A stretch of DNA of 37,430 nucleotides from a virus (IMGVR_UViG_3300033562_002112:1-37430); one strand, 5' to 3'. Shown: positions 6,905 through 37,430, counted from the stretch's first letter. Notes: generated from the letters alone by a model not told the origin. Numbers and translations: made by a program.

Positions 6905-8284
6905 ATGACAGGATTAGAATTAAACAATAGGGAAAAATATGTGAATCACGATGATAAAGCAGAAATTTTTTTTACAGGTGAATTAAAAGCATATAAAACC
7001 GCCTATACTGATCCATTAATTTTGAATTTTAAATTAATGATAGATTTTGATAAAAAATCTGGATTATTTGCTTCAAAAGAAAATATAAATTCAGCTTTAG
7101 CATATTTATTAAGGATAGGAGAAACAGCTCGTTATCATATGTTGACTCGTTGGATTGAAGTTTTTCAAGATTTTGTAAGAAATCATGATTTTTTAATATT
7201 GGATGTTATTGGACTTGATACCATAGTTAATGCCCCTCCATACCATGCTTTTACACTGGAAGATAAATTGACATTAACAATTCGAGAAACTAATGATATG
7301 TTTTTTCAATCATTATTAACAACTTATCGACATATATGGTTTGATGATAATAGATGTGTGGAAGTTTTACCAGCAAATTTAAGACGTTTTGATGCCCATA
7401 TTTTATTATTTAATTCCGGTTATTATAATATGGATATTTATGATGTTAATGGTATTGATTCTGTTGAAACAGAAACAAAAATATTCCCTACTCTTCGAAA
7501 ATTATCTGATAAATATTTTTACGATAATGCTGATAAATATGAATTTAACCATCATTTAATTAGTTTTGTTGAAGCTTCTATTAATAATGAAGAATCAGGA
7601 AAAAGTTTTTTTGAAAATGTAACTAATGAAATGACAGATGAATTTGTCAAAAATCAAATTGTTTTAAATTATCGTTTTGGAAATTATAGAGGAGTATTTA
7701 ACAATATTTTTGGAGAAATTGATTTTGTTAAAGAATTGGCTGTTATTGCAAGTTATGATAAAACATTAAATCAAAATACTACAGAAAAATCAAAATTAAA
7801 TGAATATTTCAGTTCGACAGGTGAATCATTAAAATCATTAAGTAAAGAACAATGGAATAAAATAAAAAATTCTCCACAAAGAATTAAAAAATATGTTGGA
7901 CAAAATACTGCGATTGGCCAAGCATTTAGAACATTATCAGATCCATCACTTATACCAAATATGATAAGTAATACTATTGATAGAGGGATGAATTATTTGG
8001 AAGATCAAACTATTGGGGCTGTTTTTACAGGAATTAATAATTTAATTTTACAAAATTTTTCAAATAATCTTGTAGATATATATAAAAGTTACAATGAACA
8101 AAATACTGTCAATAATTTAAAAACATATTCTGATGAAGAATTATTATTGATGACAAAAGACGAAGAAACAAATCCAAACGGAGCAAAATTTCAAGAAAAA
8201 ATTGAACCATATATGGATAATAGTGAAAATAAAAAAAATATTAAATTGGAAGCATCTAACATTTACAATAGGGGAGGATTTTAA
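6905..8284 (+). CDS. Putative tail-tube initiator / baseplate-tube junction protein (gp48/gp54-like fold)
   Basis: LTLTIRETNDMFFQSLLTTYRHIWFD resembles the tube-fold signature. Immediately upstream of the spike gene. Function is an inference. Confidence 0.5.
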   Translation: MTGLELNNREKYVNHDDKAEIFFTGELKAYKTAYTDPLILNFKLMIDFDKKSGLFASKENINSALAYLLRIGETARYHMLTRWIEVFQDFVRNHDFLILDVIGLDTIVNAPPYHAFTLEDKLTLTIRETNDMFFQSLLTTYRHIWFDDNRCVEVLPANLRRFDAHILLFNSGYYNMDIYDVNGIDSVETETKIFPTLRKLSDKYFYDNADKYEFNHHLISFVEASINNEESGKSFFENVTNEMTDEFVKNQIVLNYRFGNYRGVFNNIFGEIDFVKELAVIASYDKTLNQNTTEKSKLNEYFSSTGESLKSLSKEQWNKIKNSPQRIKKYVGQNTAIGQAFRTLSDPSLIPNMISNTIDRGMNYLEDQTIGAVFTGINNLILQNFSNNLVDIYKSYNEQNTVNNLKTYSDEELLLMTKDEETNPNGAKFQEKIEPYMDNSENKKNIKLEASNIYNRGGF

Positions 8285-8287
8285 ATA

Positions 8288-9001
8288 ATGCTTGGTAATA
8301 TAAATATTTTTTTCGGAAAAGTATTAAATGTTTCAGATGAATTAAAAATCAATAGATGTCAAATATCTATTGACGGGCTGACTGATGAAATAGTTTCTGA
8401 TGATCTTCCCTGGTATTTTCCTTGGTATGGCTTAAATTATTTACCGATCGTAAATGATGTTGTATCAGTTATCGTATTTGACAATAATTTTTCAACTTGT
8501 TTTTATGGTAGAAAAGTTGATTTGGTTGATGGTTCTCTTGATGGAGGGGATTATGAAAACTATCTTGAAATATTTAAACGGAATGTTGATGATAAAAATG
8601 TTTCACTAACTTATTTGAAATCTAAGGGAATTGAATTTATCAATGATAAAAATAAAGTTCAAATAGAACTTGATAAAATATCATTATTTGTAGATACAAA
8701 TTCCATAGTAATGACAAAAGATAGAATCGACATAGGGGATTCTGGGCAAGAACCCATAATTTTGGGAGATAAAGGTGTTTCACATTTACATGATATAATA
8801 AAACATCAAGCTAATACTATAACGGAAATGATGAAATTATTTCAAGTTATTGTAACAGCTTGTACAACTCCGTTTACAATACCAATTGGAGTAGCTTTAA
8901 CCGCAAATATTCCAATATCTCAATCAAAACTTGTGATGGAAAATACACAAGTAGATAAAAAAGCCGATACTCTTCAATCCAAAAAAACCTTCATAGAATA
9001 A
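8288..9001 (+). CDS. Baseplate central spike, gp5/gpV-like OB-fold, without lysozyme domain
   Basis: FFGKVLNVSDELKINRCQISIDGLTD...DLPWYFP...LPIVNDVVSVIVFD is the gp5 OB-fold pattern, followed by short beta repeats and EPIILGD. Confidence 0.85.
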   Translation: MLGNINIFFGKVLNVSDELKINRCQISIDGLTDEIVSDDLPWYFPWYGLNYLPIVNDVVSVIVFDNNFSTCFYGRKVDLVDGSLDGGDYENYLEIFKRNVDDKNVSLTYLKSKGIEFINDKNKVQIELDKISLFVDTNSIVMTKDRIDIGDSGQEPIILGDKGVSHLHDIIKHQANTITEMMKLFQVIVTACTTPFTIPIGVALTANIPISQSKLVMENTQVDKKADTLQSKKTFIE

Positions 9002-27548: not shown

Positions 27549-29906
27549 ATGGATACTAAATTAAGACAAATTGTCAGTAAAGCTGCTGGTACCTATTTTA
27601 TAGTTACCGATAATTCGCAAGTCGCAAATATCGAAGCTGAATCAAAAATGAGATTATTTTTTATTAACATGGAAAAAGGTCCTGTGAATATGCTTTTCAA
27701 ATTTGCGAAAGGTGACAGTTTGGGATTTTTATCTGTTTTTGGTAAAACTACTCGTTTACAAGAAAAAAAGGGAAATTTTTCAATTTCAACATGTCTTGAT
27801 GCTTTAAGTGCCGGTCCAATTGCCGTCATTAATCTTCGAGCATTTAATGAAAATGATAAGTCCGGATTAGTTGGTATGAATCCTAACATACTTGATTCAA
27901 ATGCTGTTGAATTTGAATATTCGAATTTATTTAATACAAATAATTTTTGGGCTCCTCAACCAAAAAATATGGTTGCTCCCCTTGAAATTGAAGGAGCTAA
28001 TTTATTGAATTTTGGTAATATTGGAAATAATAATTTATCAATTTTCGTTACATTTGCTAAATCATCTGATGTTCTTGCAATTACAAGTGAAGGACAAAAT
28101 ACACTTGCAAATTGTTCATTAACTATTGATGAATATCCTGCAATTGATCCGAATATGTTATTGGAAAATACATTTGTAAATGTATATGTTTTCAATAATA
28201 CGTTTAATCCTGTTACTGTAGGTACAAATCAATTTTATGGCCATTTATTTAATGCACAAGGAAATCTTGATTTTACCCGTATTGAAGAATTGATTGATAT
28301 TTCTGAAGCTGGTTTTGCAACTAAATTTACTGGTTCATTAATTCCAGGATTAGTTTCTGAAAATGATATTGATATTTCGATTGATAAAGTAATCAATCAA
28401 CAATATATGAATATCGGTCTTCTCGCATATATTAATGACGAATTGTTTGAAGCTTCTAATAAATTTTTACTCGATGTTTTTGCAGATGAGTTTTATGATG
28501 AAACCGGTGATGCTGTAAATACCAATTTATTATCTCATATTACTCCTGTTGCTTTAACAACTGTAGATGTTGTTTATCCATTAGTAACAAAAGAAGCAAA
28601 CGTAGCTCCTCTCGCAGCAAATGTTATAAATTATGGTTGTGTAAAAGTTGATACAAATAAATTCGAAGGTTCATTTGAACAAGGATTACGTGTTGGTGAT
28701 ATTTTAAAGGGAACTGAAGGAAAAGTTAAAATTGTAAGTATTGATATTATTGACGCACTTGCTATTATTGGTGACTCAACTTATACAAAAGTACAATTTA
28801 TTTGTTCAGGATCAGTTAAATTTGAAGATACTATTGTACCTGCTGTTATTGGTACTGGAACTGTAGAAAATCCTCAATTCCCCGCAAAAACAACTTCAGA
28901 AGTAACCAAATTTAATCTTTTCACAAAAACTGGTTTAATTAAACCATTTGCTTTAAATGCTTATGTTCCAAGATCAACACAATTTACTGATGGAACAAGT
29001 GAAAAACAAAATGAAATTCTGAATATGATGATTTCTCCTGGTATTGTAAAAGGAATAAAATCAGCAACCGGAATACGTTATGTAGTTGATTGTTTCAAAT
29101 CATTTGTTGAACCAAGTTATAAATCACAATTTGGATCATTAATGGTTTCACTTGATCAATCAAATAAATTTGTTCGTGCAATTATAAACGAACCATTTAT
29201 TGAGGATTTACAAAAATCTTCAAACCCTATGTTCAAACAAACCCCAACAGGTATTTTTGACTGGAGTTATGTACCAGAAGGTGGAAATAAAACCTATTCA
29301 AGCAAACTTTTAACAAAGTTTAGTTTAGGAGCAGAAATGTGTTTCTTTTTTGGACCAGGAAATATTGTTGGTTCTATTACAAAACCTTTGACCGGTTTAA
29401 TTTCAAATTTATTTTATAATAAAAGGTATGCTTTTGATGTTGTTGCAAATGCAACAGGATATGTTGATGGAATAGCTGAACTTGAATCAGCAATTGATGA
29501 TGATGAAAGAGCATATTGTGAAAGGTTTGGTTATAATCCAATAATTTATTTCGGTGGTGGAAATACTATTTATGGTAATTTAACCGGACAAAAAGCAAAA
29601 ACCGCTCAACAACAAATTCATAATTCGGAATTGCTCGCATATATAAAGGAATCTTTGTATAACCTCGCGAAAGGCGAATCTTTCAAAAAAGGTAATTATG
29701 ATGATTATCTTCGTACCGAAACCGAAACCACGAATTTTATGAATGGATTAGCTCTTGTTGGTGCAGTAAATGCAAACCCTGTCGTTATTTGTAATGCTTC
29801 AAATAATACACCGGAAATTGCGAAACAAAAAATAAAACTCATTCATATTGAATACACCCCAGTTGATTCTCTTGAGAAAGTTGTATTTGATTTACAAATT
29901 AATTAA
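27549..29906 (+). CDS. Tail sheath protein (gp18-like)
   Basis: AGTYFIVTDNS, KGPVN and FLSVFG at the N-terminus; DDERAYCERFGYNPI, IYGNLTGQ, QQIHNSELL, VICNASNNTPEI and IEYTPVDSLEKV at the C-terminus. Confidence 0.93.
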   Translation: MDTKLRQIVSKAAGTYFIVTDNSQVANIEAESKMRLFFINMEKGPVNMLFKFAKGDSLGFLSVFGKTTRLQEKKGNFSISTCLDALSAGPIAVINLRAFNENDKSGLVGMNPNILDSNAVEFEYSNLFNTNNFWAPQPKNMVAPLEIEGANLLNFGNIGNNNLSIFVTFAKSSDVLAITSEGQNTLANCSLTIDEYPAIDPNMLLENTFVNVYVFNNTFNPVTVGTNQFYGHLFNAQGNLDFTRIEELIDISEAGFATKFTGSLIPGLVSENDIDISIDKVINQQYMNIGLLAYINDELFEASNKFLLDVFADEFYDETGDAVNTNLLSHITPVALTTVDVVYPLVTKEANVAPLAANVINYGCVKVDTNKFEGSFEQGLRVGDILKGTEGKVKIVSIDIIDALAIIGDSTYTKVQFICSGSVKFEDTIVPAVIGTGTVENPQFPAKTTSEVTKFNLFTKTGLIKPFALNAYVPRSTQFTDGTSEKQNEILNMMISPGIVKGIKSATGIRYVVDCFKSFVEPSYKSQFGSLMVSLDQSNKFVRAIINEPFIEDLQKSSNPMFKQTPTGIFDWSYVPEGGNKTYSSKLLTKFSLGAEMCFFFGPGNIVGSITKPLTGLISNLFYNKRYAFDVVANATGYVDGIAELESAIDDDERAYCERFGYNPIIYFGGGNTIYGNLTGQKAKTAQQQIHNSELLAYIKESLYNLAKGESFKKGNYDDYLRTETETTNFMNGLALVGAVNANPVVICNASNNTPEIAKQKIKLIHIEYTPVDSLEKVVFDLQIN

Positions 29907-31167: not shown

Positions 31168-31758
31168 ATGCCAACAAACGTAGTATTTCCACATTTAACA
31201 AATTCAACAGCCGCGGTTAATAAATATGAACCAGTAGTTGCTTCGAATTTTAATGCCCATTTTGTTTTAATGGGCAGATTAAAGTCAAAACTCGGAGATT
31301 ATTCTTTTCTTCGTGAGTATATAAAATCCGTAACTGGATTATTTGTTGAAAAAGCTGGTGGTACTATTGAAGCTGGTTACAAAACAACAAAATTCCGTTA
31401 CGATTCAAACGAGAAAGAAACATTCTATGATGTTGAAGTTCAATTTTTTAATTTCTTGGATAATGAATCAAAAATGTTTGTATACAATTCATTAGTAGCC
31501 TGGAGTCGTTTCAAACATAATCCATTAACAGGAGAAAAAACATTAAAACAAGATTATTCGGATGCCGCAATTATTGTTGAAAAATACAACAGAGACGGTA
31601 CTATTTATTGGAGAAGAATGGGACATCATTTATTTCCAATGAATGATTTTGAAGATCAAATAGCGGATTATAGTGCTCATGACATGAGTGAATTGGCAGT
31701 AACTTTTAACGTTGATTATGTTAGTGATATAACAAATGACCCACGTTTAACTGAATAA
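31168..31758 (+). CDS. Tail tube protein (gp19-like)
   Basis: 196 aa; YEPVVASNF, IEAGYKTTKFRY, VEVQFFNFLD, KYNRDGTIYWRR, LFP and LAVTFNVDY follow the tube fold pattern. Downstream of the sheath gene. Confidence 0.88.
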   Translation: MPTNVVFPHLTNSTAAVNKYEPVVASNFNAHFVLMGRLKSKLGDYSFLREYIKSVTGLFVEKAGGTIEAGYKTTKFRYDSNEKETFYDVEVQFFNFLDNESKMFVYNSLVAWSRFKHNPLTGEKTLKQDYSDAAIIVEKYNRDGTIYWRRMGHHLFPMNDFEDQIADYSAHDMSELAVTFNVDYVSDITNDPRLTE

Positions 31759-31760
31759 AA

Positions 31761-32081
31761 ATGCTCAAAAAACGAAATAATGAGGAAATTGGTATTTTAA
31801 CACCAGTTTCCTCATCATTAAATAATGGGAAAGAATTAACATTTTCAACCCCTAAAATAAGATCATACAAGGATGAAGCTATTTTAGTTTTAAATATCTT
31901 GGAAGCAAATAATATTGATATTTATAATCCAAGAAATAAACCCGGAATGTATCTGAATAGGAAAAACAAGAATAATATTTCATCAAAATTAAAGGAAAAA
32001 TTTCAAGAAAATAATGACGATGAAAATAATTCAAGTGAATTAACAAATTTATTTCAACACTTAAAAACAATCAAAAAATAA
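31761..32081 (+). CDS. Hypothetical protein (106 aa)
   Basis: Fills the gap between tube and chaperone genes with 2-4 nt spacers. Confidence 0.65.
   Translation: MLKKRNNEEIGILTPVSSSLNNGKELTFSTPKIRSYKDEAILVLNILEANNIDIYNPRNKPGMYLNRKNKNNISSKLKEKFQENNDDENNSSELTNLFQHLKTIKK
31776..31819 (+). promoter_or_regulatory. Intragenic hairpin, 14 bp (1 G-U) + 3 bp
   Basis: ATGAGGAAATTGGT-ATTTTAAC-ACCAGTTTCCTCAT (31780-31815); 19 nt into the 31761 CDS, directly after the tube stop; no U-tract. Confidence 0.75.
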
Positions 32082-32085
32082 TAGT

Positions 32086-33021
32086 ATGAAAAATGATAAT
32101 TTGGATGCTCTTTCACAATTAGAAAAAGAAACACAAAAAAATACGGATGATTCTGTCTTAGAACGTAATGATTTAAGACCAAATATGCTTGATGGCTATA
32201 AAATTCTTCAAAGAGAAGAATTGCCACAAAAAGGTGTTTTATATCCTGAATCATGGCAATTTGCTTATAGATGTCCAATAGCTAAGGAAGTAGCTAATTT
32301 TTCAACCCTTAATGAAAATGATCAACCAGCAATTATTGCGGCTGTTGAAGATTTGATACGTAAATGTGTTGTTATTTATGATGTTGAAAAAGATCGACAA
32401 GTTTCTTCGGGACAAGTAAATGATGCACATCGTACTTTTTTCTTATTATTACTTAGAGAATTTTATCTTCCTGGTAGTCCAATCACATATCCTTCTGTTT
32501 GTACTTTATGTAAAGAACCATTATCAATACATTTAACTTCAGATAAATTAAAATATTCCGAATTATCAGAAAAAATACTTAAAGATTTTGATGGTCGCAA
32601 TTTTTCATTATCAATGCCGGATATCGAAGAACCAATTAGGTTTTATATTCCCACAATAGAAATAACTTCAAGAATTTTCAAATATATCGTAAAAGTTTAC
32701 AGAGATGATCAAAACGATAGGGAAACAAAAGAAGATAAAATTGTTTATGACAAACAATTTTTGTTAATTGCCCCTTATTTATATGTGAAAGGAAATGAAA
32801 CTGTAAAAGAAATTATTCAAAAATTTAAAGGAATACAAAAAGACGAAAAATTATTTAAAGCATATTTGAATATTGCGGTAAAATTAAAAACAGACAATCT
32901 TGATTATATAGAGGAAATCTGTGGAAGTTGTGGGTCGACGGAGGAGGCTCTTTTACGATTTCCAGGAGGATGGAAAGGTATGTTTATCAACAAGACAGAC
33001 AATACTGGATATTTCAACTGA
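32086..33021 (+). CDS. Baseplate hub / tail assembly chaperone (T4 gp26-like) with two CxxC motifs
   Basis: ELPQKGVLYP, DAHRTFFLLLLRE, CTLC and CGSC. Located between tube and tape-measure genes; ends at TGA. Confidence 0.8.
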   Translation: MKNDNLDALSQLEKETQKNTDDSVLERNDLRPNMLDGYKILQREELPQKGVLYPESWQFAYRCPIAKEVANFSTLNENDQPAIIAAVEDLIRKCVVIYDVEKDRQVSSGQVNDAHRTFFLLLLREFYLPGSPITYPSVCTLCKEPLSIHLTSDKLKYSELSEKILKDFDGRNFSLSMPDIEEPIRFYIPTIEITSRIFKYIVKVYRDDQNDRETKEDKIVYDKQFLLIAPYLYVKGNETVKEIIQKFKGIQKDEKLFKAYLNIAVKLKTDNLDYIEEICGSCGSTEEALLRFPGGWKGMFINKTDNTGYFN

Positions 33022-33364
33022 TAAATTGAGAATTTGGAAGGAAAGAAATTTCCTTCCAAATTCTCAATTAATTTCATTAATTTATTCGCAGTCAAAGATT
33101 AATTTGTCAGATTATTATGAAACTTGCGCGATTATGTCGTCTGAATCATCAAATAATCAACAAATAATTGATAATCTTGAATATTATGTTTTCAATAATT
33201 TAATGGTTTATTATCAAAAAATAGCTGAAAATAAATCAGGTACAAACGGAAATGAACAACAAAATACTCAAAATCAAGCAGCTAATCAATTTTCTAATGC
33301 ACAAAAAAGTGCGAAACAATTAATGAAACCAAATCTTGGAAGCAGAAATTTTAAAAAGAAATAG
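32921..33364 (+). CDS. gp51-like / chaperone extension ORF overlapping the gp26-like gene in the +1 frame; true start uncertain
   Basis: INLSDYYETCAIM...IIDNLEYYVFNNLMVYYQKIAE resembles the small YYxxxxxL...IENM...Y ORF that follows gp26 homologues. Candidate starts are GTG 32921, TTG 33026 or ATG 33134, or entry by frameshift. Confidence 0.65.
   Translation: MEVVGRRRRLFYDFQEDGKVCLSTRQTILDISTDKLRIWKERNFLPNSQLISLIYSQSKINLSDYYETCAIMSSESSNNQQIIDNLEYYVFNNLMVYYQKIAENKSGTNGNEQQNTQNQAANQFSNAQKSAKQLMKPNLGSRNFKKK
33024..33069 (+). promoter_or_regulatory. Perfect 21-bp hairpin with GAAA tetraloop
   Basis: AATTGAGAATTTGGAAGGAAA-GAAA-TTTCCTTCCAAATTCTCAATT, 2 nt after the TGA at 33019-33021. Confidence 0.9.
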
Positions 33365-33365
33365 G

Positions 33366-35207
33366 ATGAACATTATGAGAAATTTAAACGAAGGAATTGA
33401 AGATTTATTGAATGGAACTATTGTAAGTAATATTCCTGATATTGATACGGTTTTGTCAACAACAAAAAAGAAAAAAAGAACTTCTATTTTTGGTGATGAT
33501 GAAGAAGTAATTCCAAAAATTTCTGTAATTGAACAATCACCTATTGTAATTCCGCAACCTATTGCTGAAGAATTTCAAGAAAATGTTGTTTCACAAATTT
33601 CTCAAATCGATCGGGTTCAAGAAATAAAAAGAATATCTGCTTTGCGTTCGAAAAAGAAAAATAAAACTGAACAAATAAGTCAGGTTTCTGCTGAATCTTT
33701 GGAAAAAAGGATGCAAGAAGTCAGAAAAGAAATTGAAGCTTTACGAGGAGAAGATTTACCAGAAAATATAAATATTATCGAAATTGAAGAAGAAGTATCA
33801 ACAGCTTTGGAAGATATTCCAGGAGCAGAACATATTGATATTGGTGATTTAGATATACGTGCAATTCCTACAAAAAAAGATAAAACAGGATATTTTAAAA
33901 GTGAAATTACCAGTAGGAAAGAAAATTATCCTGATATTCTATTGAAAATTGCTTCTTATGTAAAAAAACGTTCAAAAGGATTATTAATTCCAAGAAAAGT
34001 TGATTTACGTGTTTTAGCAAATACAAACAAAACACAATTAAGAGGTTCAGCTTTGAAATTAGGATTAACATCTATTGTTTTTAAACCCGATCCAAACAAA
34101 CTTAAAGTAAATAAAGGCACACGTTTCATGATTTCTGTTCCTGAAGATTATATGTCTTCAAAAAACATAATTGTCTATATTCAAGAATCAAGAAATAAAA
34201 AAATTATTCAACTGTCTCCTAATGATACACAAAAAACTCAAGATAATTTTAATGCGTTTATTGGGGACAGAGTAGTTGAGTATTATTTTTCAGGTTTTGA
34301 CATAACAGTTAAAAAACTTGAATTACGTTCAGTAAATAATCCATTAATGGACGTAACAACCAATATTATAGCAACACACGAATTTAAAGCAATTCCACAT
34401 GTTGACGAAAATTCCCATGTATATTCTGTTGATTTTTATTCAAAAGGAGTAGATAATCAATGGTTATATATTCAAGTTGTTGAAACAGAAATACCTGGAA
34501 AATATGAATTAATAGCAAAAAATAAAGTTGATCAAACTTGGAATTTTGCTTTAACTCAAAAACCTGTAACCCTTAATGCTTTAAATTCAAATCTTTATAA
34601 TATTCTTTCTTCTTGTTTTGGAAGAGTTTGGGATAAAGAATTAAATATTGAAGATAATATGCGTTTTTATTATTTGTATGATAAATTATCTCATGCAAAA
34701 TTGAAAAACGTAATGGTATATATGTTTGAAATGATGGAATCTGAAGAAAATTCAGAAGAAGATTTGGATTTTCAAGACAAGAAAATAAAAATTAATCCAA
34801 TAATAAAAGAAACATTATCCAAAAAAGATACAGCTAAAGCTTTAAAAATAGATTATGATTCCGAAGCTATTATCTTTAAAACAGATTTTATTGATTATTG
34901 TATTTGTTCATTTTTAGCATATCCAATTGTTGGAGGGGACAAAAGAAAAGGTTCAGATTATATAACAACTGAACAATATTATGAAAAATATAACGTAAAA
35001 GATACTCGAAATTATCAAGAAAGACAAAAAACAATTTCAAAAAAAGAAGGAACTGAAAGAAATTATAATTCAAGAATATATTTATATCAACTTGAATATT
35101 CTGTCAAAGGTAAAGTACATATATATAGAAACACAAAGTGGGAAGATGTTTTAAAAGAAACAGGAATTTTTACAACTTTAGTTAAATTTCCAGAAACAAA
35201 ATTTTAA
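33366..35207 (+). CDS. Hypothetical protein (about 613 aa); start re-assigned to ATG 33366
   Basis: The in-frame ATG lies 1 nt after the upstream TAG, fitting local gene packing better than TTG 33336. Charged low-complexity N-terminal third, globular remainder. Confidence 0.7.
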   Translation: MNIMRNLNEGIEDLLNGTIVSNIPDIDTVLSTTKKKKRTSIFGDDEEVIPKISVIEQSPIVIPQPIAEEFQENVVSQISQIDRVQEIKRISALRSKKKNKTEQISQVSAESLEKRMQEVRKEIEALRGEDLPENINIIEIEEEVSTALEDIPGAEHIDIGDLDIRAIPTKKDKTGYFKSEITSRKENYPDILLKIASYVKKRSKGLLIPRKVDLRVLANTNKTQLRGSALKLGLTSIVFKPDPNKLKVNKGTRFMISVPEDYMSSKNIIVYIQESRNKKIIQLSPNDTQKTQDNFNAFIGDRVVEYYFSGFDITVKKLELRSVNNPLMDVTTNIIATHEFKAIPHVDENSHVYSVDFYSKGVDNQWLYIQVVETEIPGKYELIAKNKVDQTWNFALTQKPVTLNALNSNLYNILSSCFGRVWDKELNIEDNMRFYYLYDKLSHAKLKNVMVYMFEMMESEENSEEDLDFQDKKIKINPIIKETLSKKDTAKALKIDYDSEAIIFKTDFIDYCICSFLAYPIVGGDKRKGSDYITTEQYYEKYNVKDTRNYQERQKTISKKEGTERNYNSRIYLYQLEYSVKGKVHIYRNTKWEDVLKETGIFTTLVKFPETKF

Positions 35208-35219
35208 AAAATAAAACTC

Positions 35220-35537
35220 ATGATAATTGAAAAAGTAGGGAATGACGGACGAACACAATTAATGATAGCTTTAAACAAACTTACATCAAGTTTGGTAAAG
35301 CGTAATGTATCGTTCGTTATTAACACACATTCGGAATTTGTTGGTACAATTAATTTGATTGTTACTGGAAAATTAGGTTCAGCACAAAAAACTATTGTAA
35401 TTATATATAATCATACTTCAGGGGAATGGGAAGGATATTCTGATGGATATTTATTCCGAATGTTATTATTGAATGAACTTTCAACTGTATTGAAAAGTAA
35501 AATCAATAAATTATCTGTTTTATTACATAAAGTTTAA
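35220..35537 (+). CDS. Hypothetical protein (105 aa)
   Basis: Tightly packed ORF directly before the tape-measure-like gene. Confidence 0.7.
   Translation: MIIEKVGNDGRTQLMIALNKLTSSLVKRNVSFVINTHSEFVGTINLIVTGKLGSAQKTIVIIYNHTSGEWEGYSDGYLFRMLLLNELSTVLKSKINKLSVLLHKV
35241..35321 (+). promoter_or_regulatory. Intragenic long compound hairpin
   Basis: Outer stem AATGACGGACGA/TCGTTCGTTATT (12 bp, 2 G-U); inner GCTTTA/TAAAGC and CAAACTT/AAGTTTG around an ACATC loop. Starts 21 nt into the 35220 CDS. Confidence 0.7.
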
Positions 35538-35540
35538 AGT

Positions 35541-37430
35541 ATGAATCAAACTCAAAATTTATCCATGAGACAAGCAACTCCAAATGAAATGGGATTAACT
35601 TCCATTACATCTATGTTTGCTGAAATTTCACAAAATACTGTTTCTGGAAGTAAATTTTTAGATTCGTTACAAAAAAATTTTGATAAATTAAACATTTTCA
35701 TTGGGGAATCAATTAGCAGTTTATTGCCAACATTTAGTTTGGATTATTTTAAGAAAAAAGACAAACATAATTTTTTGATGAATAATATTTCAGATAAATT
35801 AAATCAATTAACTGAATATTTTTTATCTCAATCAAAACCTGTTGAAAATAATGTTCCTGAAATATTAAATACTTCAATAGTATCTCCAATAATACAACCA
35901 ACAACAATTGTTCCAACCAACACAGAAGTTTCTCCAGAAATATTACCTCCGACAATTAACAACACGAATAAAAAAACAAAAGAAAATGATTTTAAAGTTG
36001 GTGGTATTCCTGAATTAACAGAATTTATAAAAACTATTTCGAAAGAATTAAATAAAAAATTATTCAATAAAATGAATGATTTCAATATTTCATTGGAAAA
36101 AATGCTTAGTTTTGATGAAAAAAAAGCTGAAAGTTTTGGTAATGGTATTGGAAAATTAAATAAAATTCTCGAAAATCTTGTGAAATATTTAAAACCAGCA
36201 GCTATTTCTATTCTTGGTTTAGTTGCTGGATTTTTCTTACTTGGAATGATAACAAAAACACCTGCTATTATTCTTAGTTTAATTACACTCACAATATTTA
36301 TATGGGGATTAACAAAAGTATTAGGTGATAAAATTTTACCTAATAATATGATGCAATTTAGTGCAGGTATACTAATATTAGTGGGAGCAATGTTCGCAAT
36401 AACATTTGTACCATTTGCATCTATATTTAAAATGATTACTTTTATTGGATTACTTGGATTTGTATTTCGATCACATATTGGTAAAGCAAGTTTACCAATG
36501 CAAATGATACAATTTGCTACTGGAATAGCTATTTTAACATTAGCTTTATTTGCATTTACAGAAATTCCATTTATGGCTATATTCAAAATGATAACTTTTA
36601 TTGGTTTATTTGGATTAGTTTTGAAAATGATTAATAAACCAGGTACTTTTGGACCAGGTCCAAAAATGTCAGCAATTTTATCTTTTGGAATGGGGCTTGG
36701 TATTATGGTACTTGCATTATTTGCCTTTAATGAAGTTCCTTGGGATGCGGTCGCAAAATTATTAGTTTTTATTGGAATACTTGGTTTGGAAATTATAATG
36801 ATTAATAAACTTTCTGGTGGTGCTGGATTTACTAAAGGACTTCCAGGATTTGCTTTTGGATTAGGTTTATTAGTTCTTGCAATGTTTGCAATGAATGAAC
36901 TTCCATGGCAAGCACTTGGCACTACATTATTGTTTTTAGGTGGTTTAGGAATTGTGTTAAAACTATTTGGTCCAAAAACCGGAATAACAATGGCTTTAGT
37001 TGGTGGTGGTATATTAGCAATATCAGCAGCTTTTTGGGTATTCAAACAAACAAATTTCACCGTAAATGATGCTCTTATTTTTGCTGGTTCATTAGCAATT
37101 ATTGGAGCAGTTATACTTTTATTTGGTATTCCTGCTGTTGCTGGATTATTAATAGTTGGTAGTATAGCATTAATTGGTATTTCGATTGCATCAATTTTAA
37201 TAGCTTTATCATTATCATTAATTTCAACAATAAAAATATCTTATAAAAAAGTAGGTAATTTTGTTTTAGCTGTTGGAATTTTAGCCCTTGGTTTTGCAGC
37301 GATTGCAATTCCTGCTGTTCCTGGTTTAATTGGTGCCATATTATTTTTACCAATAACATTAAGTGCTTTATTAGCTGCCGGAACAATAGCATTAATTTCA
37401 ATAATTAAAATAAATAATTCTTCTGTAATA
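35541..37430 (+). CDS. Tape-measure-like protein with hydrophobic repeats (3' truncated; not in ORF track)
   Basis: Manual translation from ATG 35541 is open for 630 codons to the edge (MNQTQNLSMRQATPNEMG...). From about residue 220 it is G/A/L/I/F-rich with repeats of about 50-56 aa. Downstream of tube and chaperone genes. Confidence 0.75.
   Translation, partial: MNQTQNLSMRQATPNEMGLTSITSMFAEISQNTVSGSKFLDSLQKNFDKLNIFIGESISSLLPTFSLDYFKKKDKHNFLMNNISDKLNQLTEYFLSQSKPVENNVPEILNTSIVSPIIQPTTIVPTNTEVSPEILPPTINNTNKKTKENDFKVGGIPELTEFIKTISKELNKKLFNKMNDFNISLEKMLSFDEKKAESFGNGIGKLNKILENLVKYLKPAAISILGLVAGFFLLGMITKTPAIILSLITLTIFIWGLTKVLGDKILPNNMMQFSAGILILVGAMFAITFVPFASIFKMITFIGLLGFVFRSHIGKASLPMQMIQFATGIAILTLALFAFTEIPFMAIFKMITFIGLFGLVLKMINKPGTFGPGPKMSAILSFGMGLGIMVLALFAFNEVPWDAVAKLLVFIGILGLEIIMINKLSGGAGFTKGLPGFAFGLGLLVLAMFAMNELPWQALGTTLLFLGGLGIVLKLFGPKTGITMALVGGGILAISAAFWVFKQTNFTVNDALIFAGSLAIIGAVILLFGIPAVAGLLIVGSIALIGISIASILIALSLSLISTIKISYKKVGNFVLAVGILALGFAAIAIPAVPGLIGAILFLPITLSALLAAGTIALISIIKINNSSVI

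Follow-up and report, generated by a model that had tools for sequence, protein, structure and literature searches.

The DNA analysed here, referred to as the window, is the whole 37,430-nt stretch IMGVR_UViG_3300033562_002112:1-37430 from an uncultured T4-related phage, and is a fragment of a large myophage. Among its genes are those for a tail sheath and a tail-tube-like protein, followed by ORF1, by a second ORF that overlaps the 3' end of ORF1 in the +1 frame, and by three further ORFs (Table 1). Between the tube-like gene and ORF1 lies a 106-aa ORF, near the start of which there is an imperfect 21-bp inverted repeat (31776-31819, 86%). ORFs similar in size to the 613-aa and 105-aa ORFs occupy the same positions in several close relatives (L001, L003, L017, L038, L042 and L045). 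The long hydrophobic ORF after them had no match in the family searches; its nearest named ESM Atlas clusters are tape measures at 0.82, which is a lead only. In phage MA9V-2 the tape measure (PHROG 4372, E 1e-6) is the directly following gene, whereas in the window two genes intervene before the weak candidate.

Table 1. Positions of the genes and sequence features discussed, counted from the first letter of the window
Feature	Position	Strand	Remarks
Tail sheath gene	27549-29906	+	phrog_34521, E 2e-115
Tail-tube-like gene	31168-31758	+	phrog_32623, whose PAU member matches tail tube (E 1e-6)
ORF1, 311 aa	32086-33021	+	T4 gp26-like tail assembly chaperone, short form (TAC-N)
GC-rich 5' element	32932-32950	+	candidate stimulator; GGAGGAGG (32940-32947) within or next to the loop of a possible stem
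E-site codon CGA	32956-32958	+	
Predicted +1 shift site UUU_C	32959-32962	+	P-site tRNA-Phe, UUU to UUC; codon 292; sole in-frame TTT_C of ORF1
Dual-coding overlap, 20 codons	32960-33021	+	from shift site to ORF1 stop
+1-frame ORF, 134 codons from TTC	32960-33364	+	T4 gp51-like C-terminal extension (TAC-C); without conserved start
Perfect 21-bp hairpin, GAAA loop	33024-33069	+	in the variable linker of the +1 ORF
613-aa ORF	33366-35207		without convincing family match; between chaperone and candidate tape measure
105-aa ORF	35220-35537		without convincing family match; between chaperone and candidate tape measure
Long hydrophobic ORF	35547-37430	+	weak tape-measure candidate; truncated by the contig end

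ORF1 matches PHROG 36717, the family of PAU gp93 (E 9e-20), and more weakly phrog_150, baseplate hub (E 5e-4), and 27 of 109 ORF1 homologues match PF12322 (T4_baseplate) at E<=0.1, the best at 1.7e-7. Its AF2 model (pLDDT 90) retrieves T4-like baseplate hub subunits from BFVD at E 3e-10 to 1e-4; a Foldseek search of the PDB with the same model gave no match. We place ORF1 in the T4 gp26 family, an affiliation that is weak by sequence and clear by the predicted fold. Its C-terminus bears a CxxC zinc-ribbon-like motif followed by F-P-G-G. As for the +1-frame ORF, those of 11 of the 26 tested loci match PHROG 634 (gp51, baseplate hub assembly catalyst) at E<=0.1 (best 4e-6), and in 10 of these 11 the match begins 6-12 residues past the TTC, i.e. 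within the overlap. The +1 ORF of the window itself has no direct match to PHROG 634/gp51 and is linked to it solely via the family alignment; its AF2 model is helical (pLDDT 69.5).

An earlier, sequence-only reading had described a candidate recoding cassette here, and all of the features it listed are present. The +1 frame is open over 32912-33364, that is from 107 nt before the ORF1 TGA (33019-33021), the 101 nt given in that reading being counted from a GTG (32921) through the stop; the frame has no ATG before 33134, 58 codons past 32960, after the gp51-like similarity has begun. The segment 32921-33000 has 38/80 G+C, about twice the 25.9% of the window overall and matched by just 35 of the 37,350 other 80-nt windows in it. 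Likewise present are the GGAGG-containing motif (Table 1), CTT-TTA in the ORF1 frame at 32950-32955, AGGAGG at 32964-32969, and a perfect 21-bp hairpin after the TGA. A 14-bp stem that it had also listed can form in the window sequence and appears in no consensus fold. Gene starts in the window do lack Shine-Dalgarno (SD) sequences, as had been remarked: an SD 4-mer precedes 1 of 28, 23 of the 28 have A at -3, and across the loci described below 2 of 130 ORF1 starts have an SD. The sole strong SD-like start among the 28 is that of a baseplate/tail lysozyme-like gene at 8288 (GGGGAGGA, 8266-8290). The hosts of the named relatives are Bacteroidota (Tenacibaculum, Chryseobacterium, Flavobacterium, Prevotella), the exception being PAU, recorded on Sphingomonas. 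The start signature of the window, with A at -3 and almost no SD, presumably fits a Bacteroidota host; upstream adenines are mentioned in a passage of PMC13000457.

The overlap and the UUU_C site

For comparison 250 loci were gathered in addition to the window; 15 with less than 300 nt after the stop were dropped, and the remaining 236 were reduced to 131 representatives with less than 90% identity around the site. The column of the anchor Phe was placed by protein alignment, and seven further named records were treated apart from this set. In two of the locus searches the peptide patterns included F-P or F-[QPR], so that residue counts are biased while tests on synonymous codons are unaffected; the loci are also related by descent, and counts of loci are not counts of independent events.

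Starting at the anchor Phe, the +1 frame runs without a stop for at least 60 codons in 123 of the 131 dereplicated loci (window included), as against a long -1 frame in one. In the 610 overlap codons of the 30 loci of a first set there is not a single +1-frame stop, compared with 0.067 per codon elsewhere in the gene body, and synonymous codons that would create such stops are avoided. Length changes in the overlap and linker come in whole codons, the +1 frame being open throughout. The overlap of the gp26-like ORF with the +1-frame ORF is real and conserved. Nor is the arrangement an assembly error: one contig in the probable source run, which is not independent of the window, covers 32700-33400 with one substitution and no indels, and the same arrangement recurs in relatives.

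The +1-frame stops bracket the position at which the frame must change. The last of them lies at codon -2 in 21 loci and within codons -6 to -1 in 46, whereas in the 98 distant loci none is found at codon +4 (24.5 expected from synonymous usage) or at codon +9 (34 expected). Because such stops are tolerated as far as -2 and excluded from +4 on, the shift must fall between codons -1 and +4, and near-invariance in this interval is limited to TTT_C, which stands at the anchor in 120 of the 123 loci with an open +1 frame. The anchor Phe codon is TTT in 120 of 122 cases, as opposed to 61% in the gene body. A protein-only test on 116 distant homologues found P, R, Q or H after the anchor F in 102 of 106 cases, compared with 10.5% after other Phe residues; the common property of these four is that their codons can begin with C, and the DNA loci confirm the C. 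A T precedes TTT in 1 of 120 loci, against 45.9 expected, and 11 of 13 Arg codons in the E site are CGA (6% in the background). The codon after TTT can be any that starts with C except those for Leu (Pro 87, Gln 19 and Arg 16 of 123); it is CCC in 46 of the 123 loci, compared with 7% of Pro codons elsewhere, and CGN in 16. In the window it is CCA, the commonest Pro codon there (129/226), so that a pause at a hungry codon is not evident, and the new A-site codon, CAG, is rare (12/239).

Five loci (L057, L063, L101, L103 and L144) have TCC_TTT_CG at the site, in agreement with the minimal +1 cassette of influenza PA-X; in L057 it reads exactly TCC_TTT_CGT. A C-terminal GGA TAT TTC was also considered as a shift site and rejected, as it is lost in the wider family.

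The upstream element and the hairpin

GAGG is found upstream of the site in 114 of 123 loci (24/25 close, 90/98 distant), and in 1 of the 8 loci in which the +1 frame closes, the background rate being 0.03-0.07 per equal stretch of gene body. Its usual distance from the site is 11-20 nt, most often with its end 14, 17 or 20 nt ahead of TTT, and Glu codons at positions -7 to -5 are GAG in 60 of 63 cases, compared with 11%. We rate the element as selected at the RNA level, which bears out the earlier emphasis on the upstream GGAGG. The second AGGAGG, previously put forward as a signal as well, was rejected in that role: it encodes Gly-Gly and is not conserved, GGAGG being found there in 50 of 123 loci.

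In the window the element could form a 5-bp stem of GGGUC (32932-32936) with GGCUC (32946-32950). This stem is 88% paired in 22 of the 25 close loci (the three with a shifted register being excluded), a level reached by none of 500 shuffles, and two of its pairs show two-sided changes, in just four cells. A stem in fixed register was unsupported in the 98 distant loci (271/2000 permutations), the mean folding of which is -9.2 as against -8.1 +/- 0.3 in column-swap controls. A flank-swap test gave its largest effect at the element (1.4-1.6 kcal/mol), yet windows in the gene body reach similar z-scores, and because the test is thus not element-specific the stem-loop remains unproven. Pairing of GAGG with UUUC, the top helix by paired fraction, was rejected as invariant and unable to form while the site is decoded.

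The spacing of SD sequences is given as 3 nt for stimulation of +1 shifts and 9-14 nt for -1 shifts in a passage of PMC5009743; the 11-20 nt spacing of GAGG is unlike the former, and overlaps and mostly exceeds the latter. Bacteroidia ribosomes, moreover, normally sequester the anti-SD, even at prfB (PMC10798248, in part). Given this long spacing and the sequestered anti-SD, simple SD pairing is a poor fit. In vitro, designed hairpins placed upstream promote +1 shifting on 70S ribosomes according to a section of PMC6321510, and 5' stem-loop stimulation of +1 shifts on bacterial ribosomes is entertained with a 'perhaps' in part of PMC5009743. The element probably raises the slip rate, either as a stem-loop that re-forms behind the ribosome or through base-pairing to 16S rRNA. 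Tenacibaculum phage PTm1 has no GAGG upstream of its site, and the element is therefore not essential. We offer two more specific versions only tentatively, as a possibility on the doubtful side: the GC-rich GAGG segment, which ends 8-10 nt before UUU_C, might be a natural 5' stem-loop stimulator of +1 shifts on bacterial ribosomes, or it might act by SD pairing only when the Bacteroidota anti-SD is freed from bS21, with the chaperone ratio then following the state of the host ribosomes.

On the other side of the site, the 21-bp hairpin is far stronger than expected (z -7.4 vs dinucleotide shuffles), and stems of at least 11 bp follow the ORF1 stop in 9 of 25 close relatives, all different in sequence, compared with 9 of 175 background windows; for distant loci the figures are 7 of 98 and 14 of 686. 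Long near-perfect hairpins of unrelated sequence are found inside the coding linker of the +1 ORF in L014, L015, L027, L028, L029, L043 and L046. The sequence of the hairpin is not conserved, and it begins 65 nt past the shift site. Given the size of the ribosome footprint, a hairpin at this distance should be too remote to act on a ribosome positioned at UUU and to drive the slip. The hairpin scored as terminator-like, and a reasonable guess is that it is a leaky terminator or a structure of the mRNA 3' end that favours the short form. A conserved 3' stimulator was rejected, downstream folding being no better or slightly better than that of mononucleotide shuffles. A UUUCC/GGAAA hairpin that spans the site, part of the consensus for 19 close loci, was set aside as uninformative because it is dictated by F-P-G-G-W-K and shows no variation.

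Natural losses and exceptions

In 8 of the 131 loci (L155, L164, L171, L172, L175, L177, L180 and L210) the +1 frame closes within 4-18 codons. A quick tree, with SH-aLRT support only, places seven of them in one clade (support 100) and the eighth, L155, on a separate branch inside a TTT_C clade. With the closure TTT_C, GAGG and high GC3 are mostly lost together: TTT_C is gone in seven of the eight, L155 retaining it with a T before it, and the GC3 of the upstream 12 codons is 0.16 as against 0.49-0.53 in the others. A separate gp51-like ORF is found in seven of the eight (none was found in L164) at a variable distance and in a variable frame, and its own ATG was located in four. Because the gp51-like domain appears stand-alone, no fusion of the two parts seems possible in these two lineages. 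The stand-alone ORF lies behind a terminator-like hairpin or an inserted gene, and the clade of seven has U-tailed hairpins after ORF1. This state, with a stand-alone gp51-like gene and no fusion, differs from that of lambda, and presumably also from that of T4.

Elsewhere the site seems to have changed its place in the overlap. Chryseobacterium phage MA9V-2 (L251) and PTm1 (L253) have lost the anchor Phe but carry V_TTT_C in the open overlap 36 and 75 nt before the stop, respectively, so that TTT_C seems to lie downstream in the former and upstream in the latter. In four proteins of set A2, F-R, F-Q or F-L is likewise found about six residues upstream of the anchor. Three loci with an open +1 frame have another sequence at the anchor, namely ATC_T in L131 and TTC_C in L186 and L201, and LR756504 has an open frame with no TTT_C anywhere in the overlap. 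In the overlaps of these four, CTT_T or CCC_A may serve as other shift sites.

A probable frameshift, its alternatives and known systems

The overlap, the site and its bracketing by +1-frame stops are read directly from the alignments, and from them we consider it likely that this locus uses a programmed +1 ribosomal frameshift to produce tail assembly chaperones of 311 and 425 aa. The recoding earlier proposed to join the gp26-like ORF to the +1-frame gp51-like ORF is thereby supported, the predicted long form comprising 291 + 134 residues. Peptidyl-tRNA-Phe (anticodon GAA), paired with UUU in the P site, would re-pair one base forward to UUC, and decoding would restart at CAG to give ...L-L-R-F-Q-E-D-G-K.... 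Avoidance of U before UUU would block a competing -1 slip, and in loci with CCC as the following codon, tRNA-Pro slippage would yield an identical product. By analogy with gpG/gpGT of lambda, the abundant short form would coat the tape-measure protein and the minor long form would recruit the tail tube protein.

It could be argued that the gp51-like ORF is merely a separate gene started in or after the overlap (at the GTG at 32921, a TTG near 33026 or 33104, an ATT or the ATG at 33134), with GGAGG as its ribosome-binding site. Separate gp51-like genes do exist in two lineages, 111 of the 123 loci have some ATG, GTG or TTG in the +1 frame before the ORF1 stop, and in PAU an ATG in this frame lies 6 nt past GGAGG. 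Across the 123 loci, however, no start position in the +1 frame is shared. The GTGs arise where a Cys codon meets a Gly codon, and in 46 loci +1 stops separate them from the rest of the frame; ATGs in the open frame at or before codon +7, the point at which the gp51 match sets in, occur in 34 of 123 at scattered positions, and 36 of 123 have no ATG, GTG or TTG up to that codon. A conserved start behind GGAGG was sought in either frame and rejected, and SD sequences are, as noted above, hardly used at starts. A separate gene would also leave unexplained the preference for TTT over TTC, the following C and the preceding non-T, features that are lost where the gene stands alone. We therefore regard this explanation as distinctly unlikely. 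Fusion by translational bypassing over the hairpin, as the sequence-only reading had allowed, or by transcriptional slippage could draw on the frequency of long hairpins after the ORF1 stop in close relatives. A hop would not need a +1 frame open through overlap and linker or length changes in whole codons, no matching codons for take-off and landing, and no homopolymer run longer than three, are conserved, and a T that would lengthen the run is avoided; such a route seems highly improbable.

The remaining alternatives concern the shift itself. A -2 frameshift, a kind also envisaged earlier, is known from Mu, and a -2 slip at TTT_C would have a long-spaced SD duplex pull the ribosome back so that tRNA-Pro re-pairs from CCN to UUC, giving R-F-P-Q-E-D. 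Stimulators of backward shifts sit at 9-14 nt (PMC5009743, in part), a range that the 11-17 nt of GAGG partly shares, and Pro codons that follow TTT are CCC more often than elsewhere (16 of 29 vs 7%). Set against this, TTT is followed in 35 of 123 loci by a Gln or Arg codon, the tRNA for which could not re-pair on UUC; re-pairing at -1 (UCC) would beat that at -2 and leads nowhere conserved; and the U before UUU that backward slips of tRNA-Phe need is selected against. A shift of this kind is accordingly very unlikely. The sequence-only reading had preferred a prfB-like +1 shift at CUU-U (32950-32953) with an SD 2 nt upstream, and both motif and spacing are present in the window; a different CTT_Y, moreover, occurs at codons +4 to +10 in 44 of the 98 distant loci and may be a secondary site there. 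CTT-T at the codon in question is, however, private to the window (1/123), a +1 stop occupies the next codon in 21 loci, and no stop codon follows as in prfB, which makes this site extremely improbable. Alignment of the homologous loci thus upholds the conserved +1 overlap and synonymous constraint that had been anticipated, with TTT_C and not CTT-T as the conserved motif. As TTT_C lies three codons downstream of CTT-TTA, the predicted junction becomes ...EEALLR-F-QEDGK in place of EEAL-YDFQEDGK, and the LysC peptide predicted to span it is TDNLDYIEEICGSCGSTEEALLRFQEDGK.

The predicted +1 shift at UUU_C has partial counterparts. Xu et al. 2004 is reportedly the reference for the conserved frameshift of tail assembly chaperone (TAC) genes in long-tailed phages, and Vladimirov, Gautam and Davidson (2022, Virology 566:9) are said to have identified T4 gp26 as TAC-N and gp51 as TAC-NC, with frameshifts in some T4-like groups. 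The protein families of T4 gp26/gp51 are those found here (PF12322; PHROG 150 and 634). TAC frameshifts of long-tailed phages are well known and mostly -1, as set out in part of PMC5009743. Like lambda gpG/gpGT, the present locus has two overlapping ORFs, the second without a conserved start, and a conserved slip site in the overlap; lambda shifts by -1 on a slippery heptamer (X XXY YYZ), whereas here the shift is a predicted +1 at UUU_C with U before UUU avoided, the protein has a gp26-type fold with a zinc-ribbon-like end, the shift lies about 20 codons before the stop, and two genes separate the locus from the candidate tape measure in the window. Shift signals of T4-like TACs are described as poly-T -1 sites in a passage of PMC12846349 that cites Vladimirov 2022, in contrast to the +1 UUU_C of the PAU/pT24/Lak/huge-phage clade.

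Shifts of +1 in TACs have been proposed for haloarchaeal myoviruses, for HSTV-2 in a section of PMC5009743 and at TTT-CGC for HF1-like halovirus tail chaperones in one of PMC7230728. These likewise join a gene pair by a predicted +1 shift at TTT_C, but their hosts are archaeal, the site is beside the stop codon, and the passages concerned describe no upstream GAGG element. UUU_Y is described as +1-prone in bacteria, and sites of the UUU_C type include UCC_UUU_CGU of influenza A PA-X, UUU_CGN of amalgaviruses and UUU_Y of Yersinia YopN-TyeA (all in part of PMC5009743). The PA-X and amalgavirus sites share the in-frame UUU followed by C and the re-pairing of P-site UUU to UUC; they have CGN in the A site, whereas here any C-starting codon except those for Leu is used, along with a conserved 5' GC-rich element. 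The prfB shift (PMC10798248, in part) resembles the one predicted here in being +1 and in having a conserved SD-like sequence within the gene in organisms that initiate translation without SD, and differs in its CUU_U, its A-site stop and its SD 3 nt away, the stop being lacking here and GAGG mostly 11-20 nt away. Unlike bypassing of the T4 gene 60 type, the +1 frame here is open throughout and no matched codons are conserved. A passage of the PRFect paper (PMC10885494) holds that no general forward frameshift motif is established. A literature search found no description of a UUU_C site in this clade, which Vladimirov et al. 2022 may already cover, and the annotated records examined list the two parts as separate genes.

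If true, this proposal would extend the rule of two-form tail chaperones, via a rare +1 route, to the large T4-related clade of jumbo and mega phages that includes PAU, pT24, PTm1, MaF61, MA9V, Lak and the 460-735 kb huge phages, with hosts that are mostly Bacteroidota. The 'hypothetical' genes PAU gp94, pT24_131, MA9V2_060, MaF61 ORF156 and PTm1 ORF-023 would then be the tails of longer proteins, and the lineages with a stand-alone gp51-like gene show one route toward a two-gene state. The more than 100 natural bacterial UUU_C variants and the two natural losses would provide a test set for +1 shifts that do not involve a stop codon, in culturable phage-host pairs, and the 5' element would add weight to this if proven to be a natural upstream stimulator.
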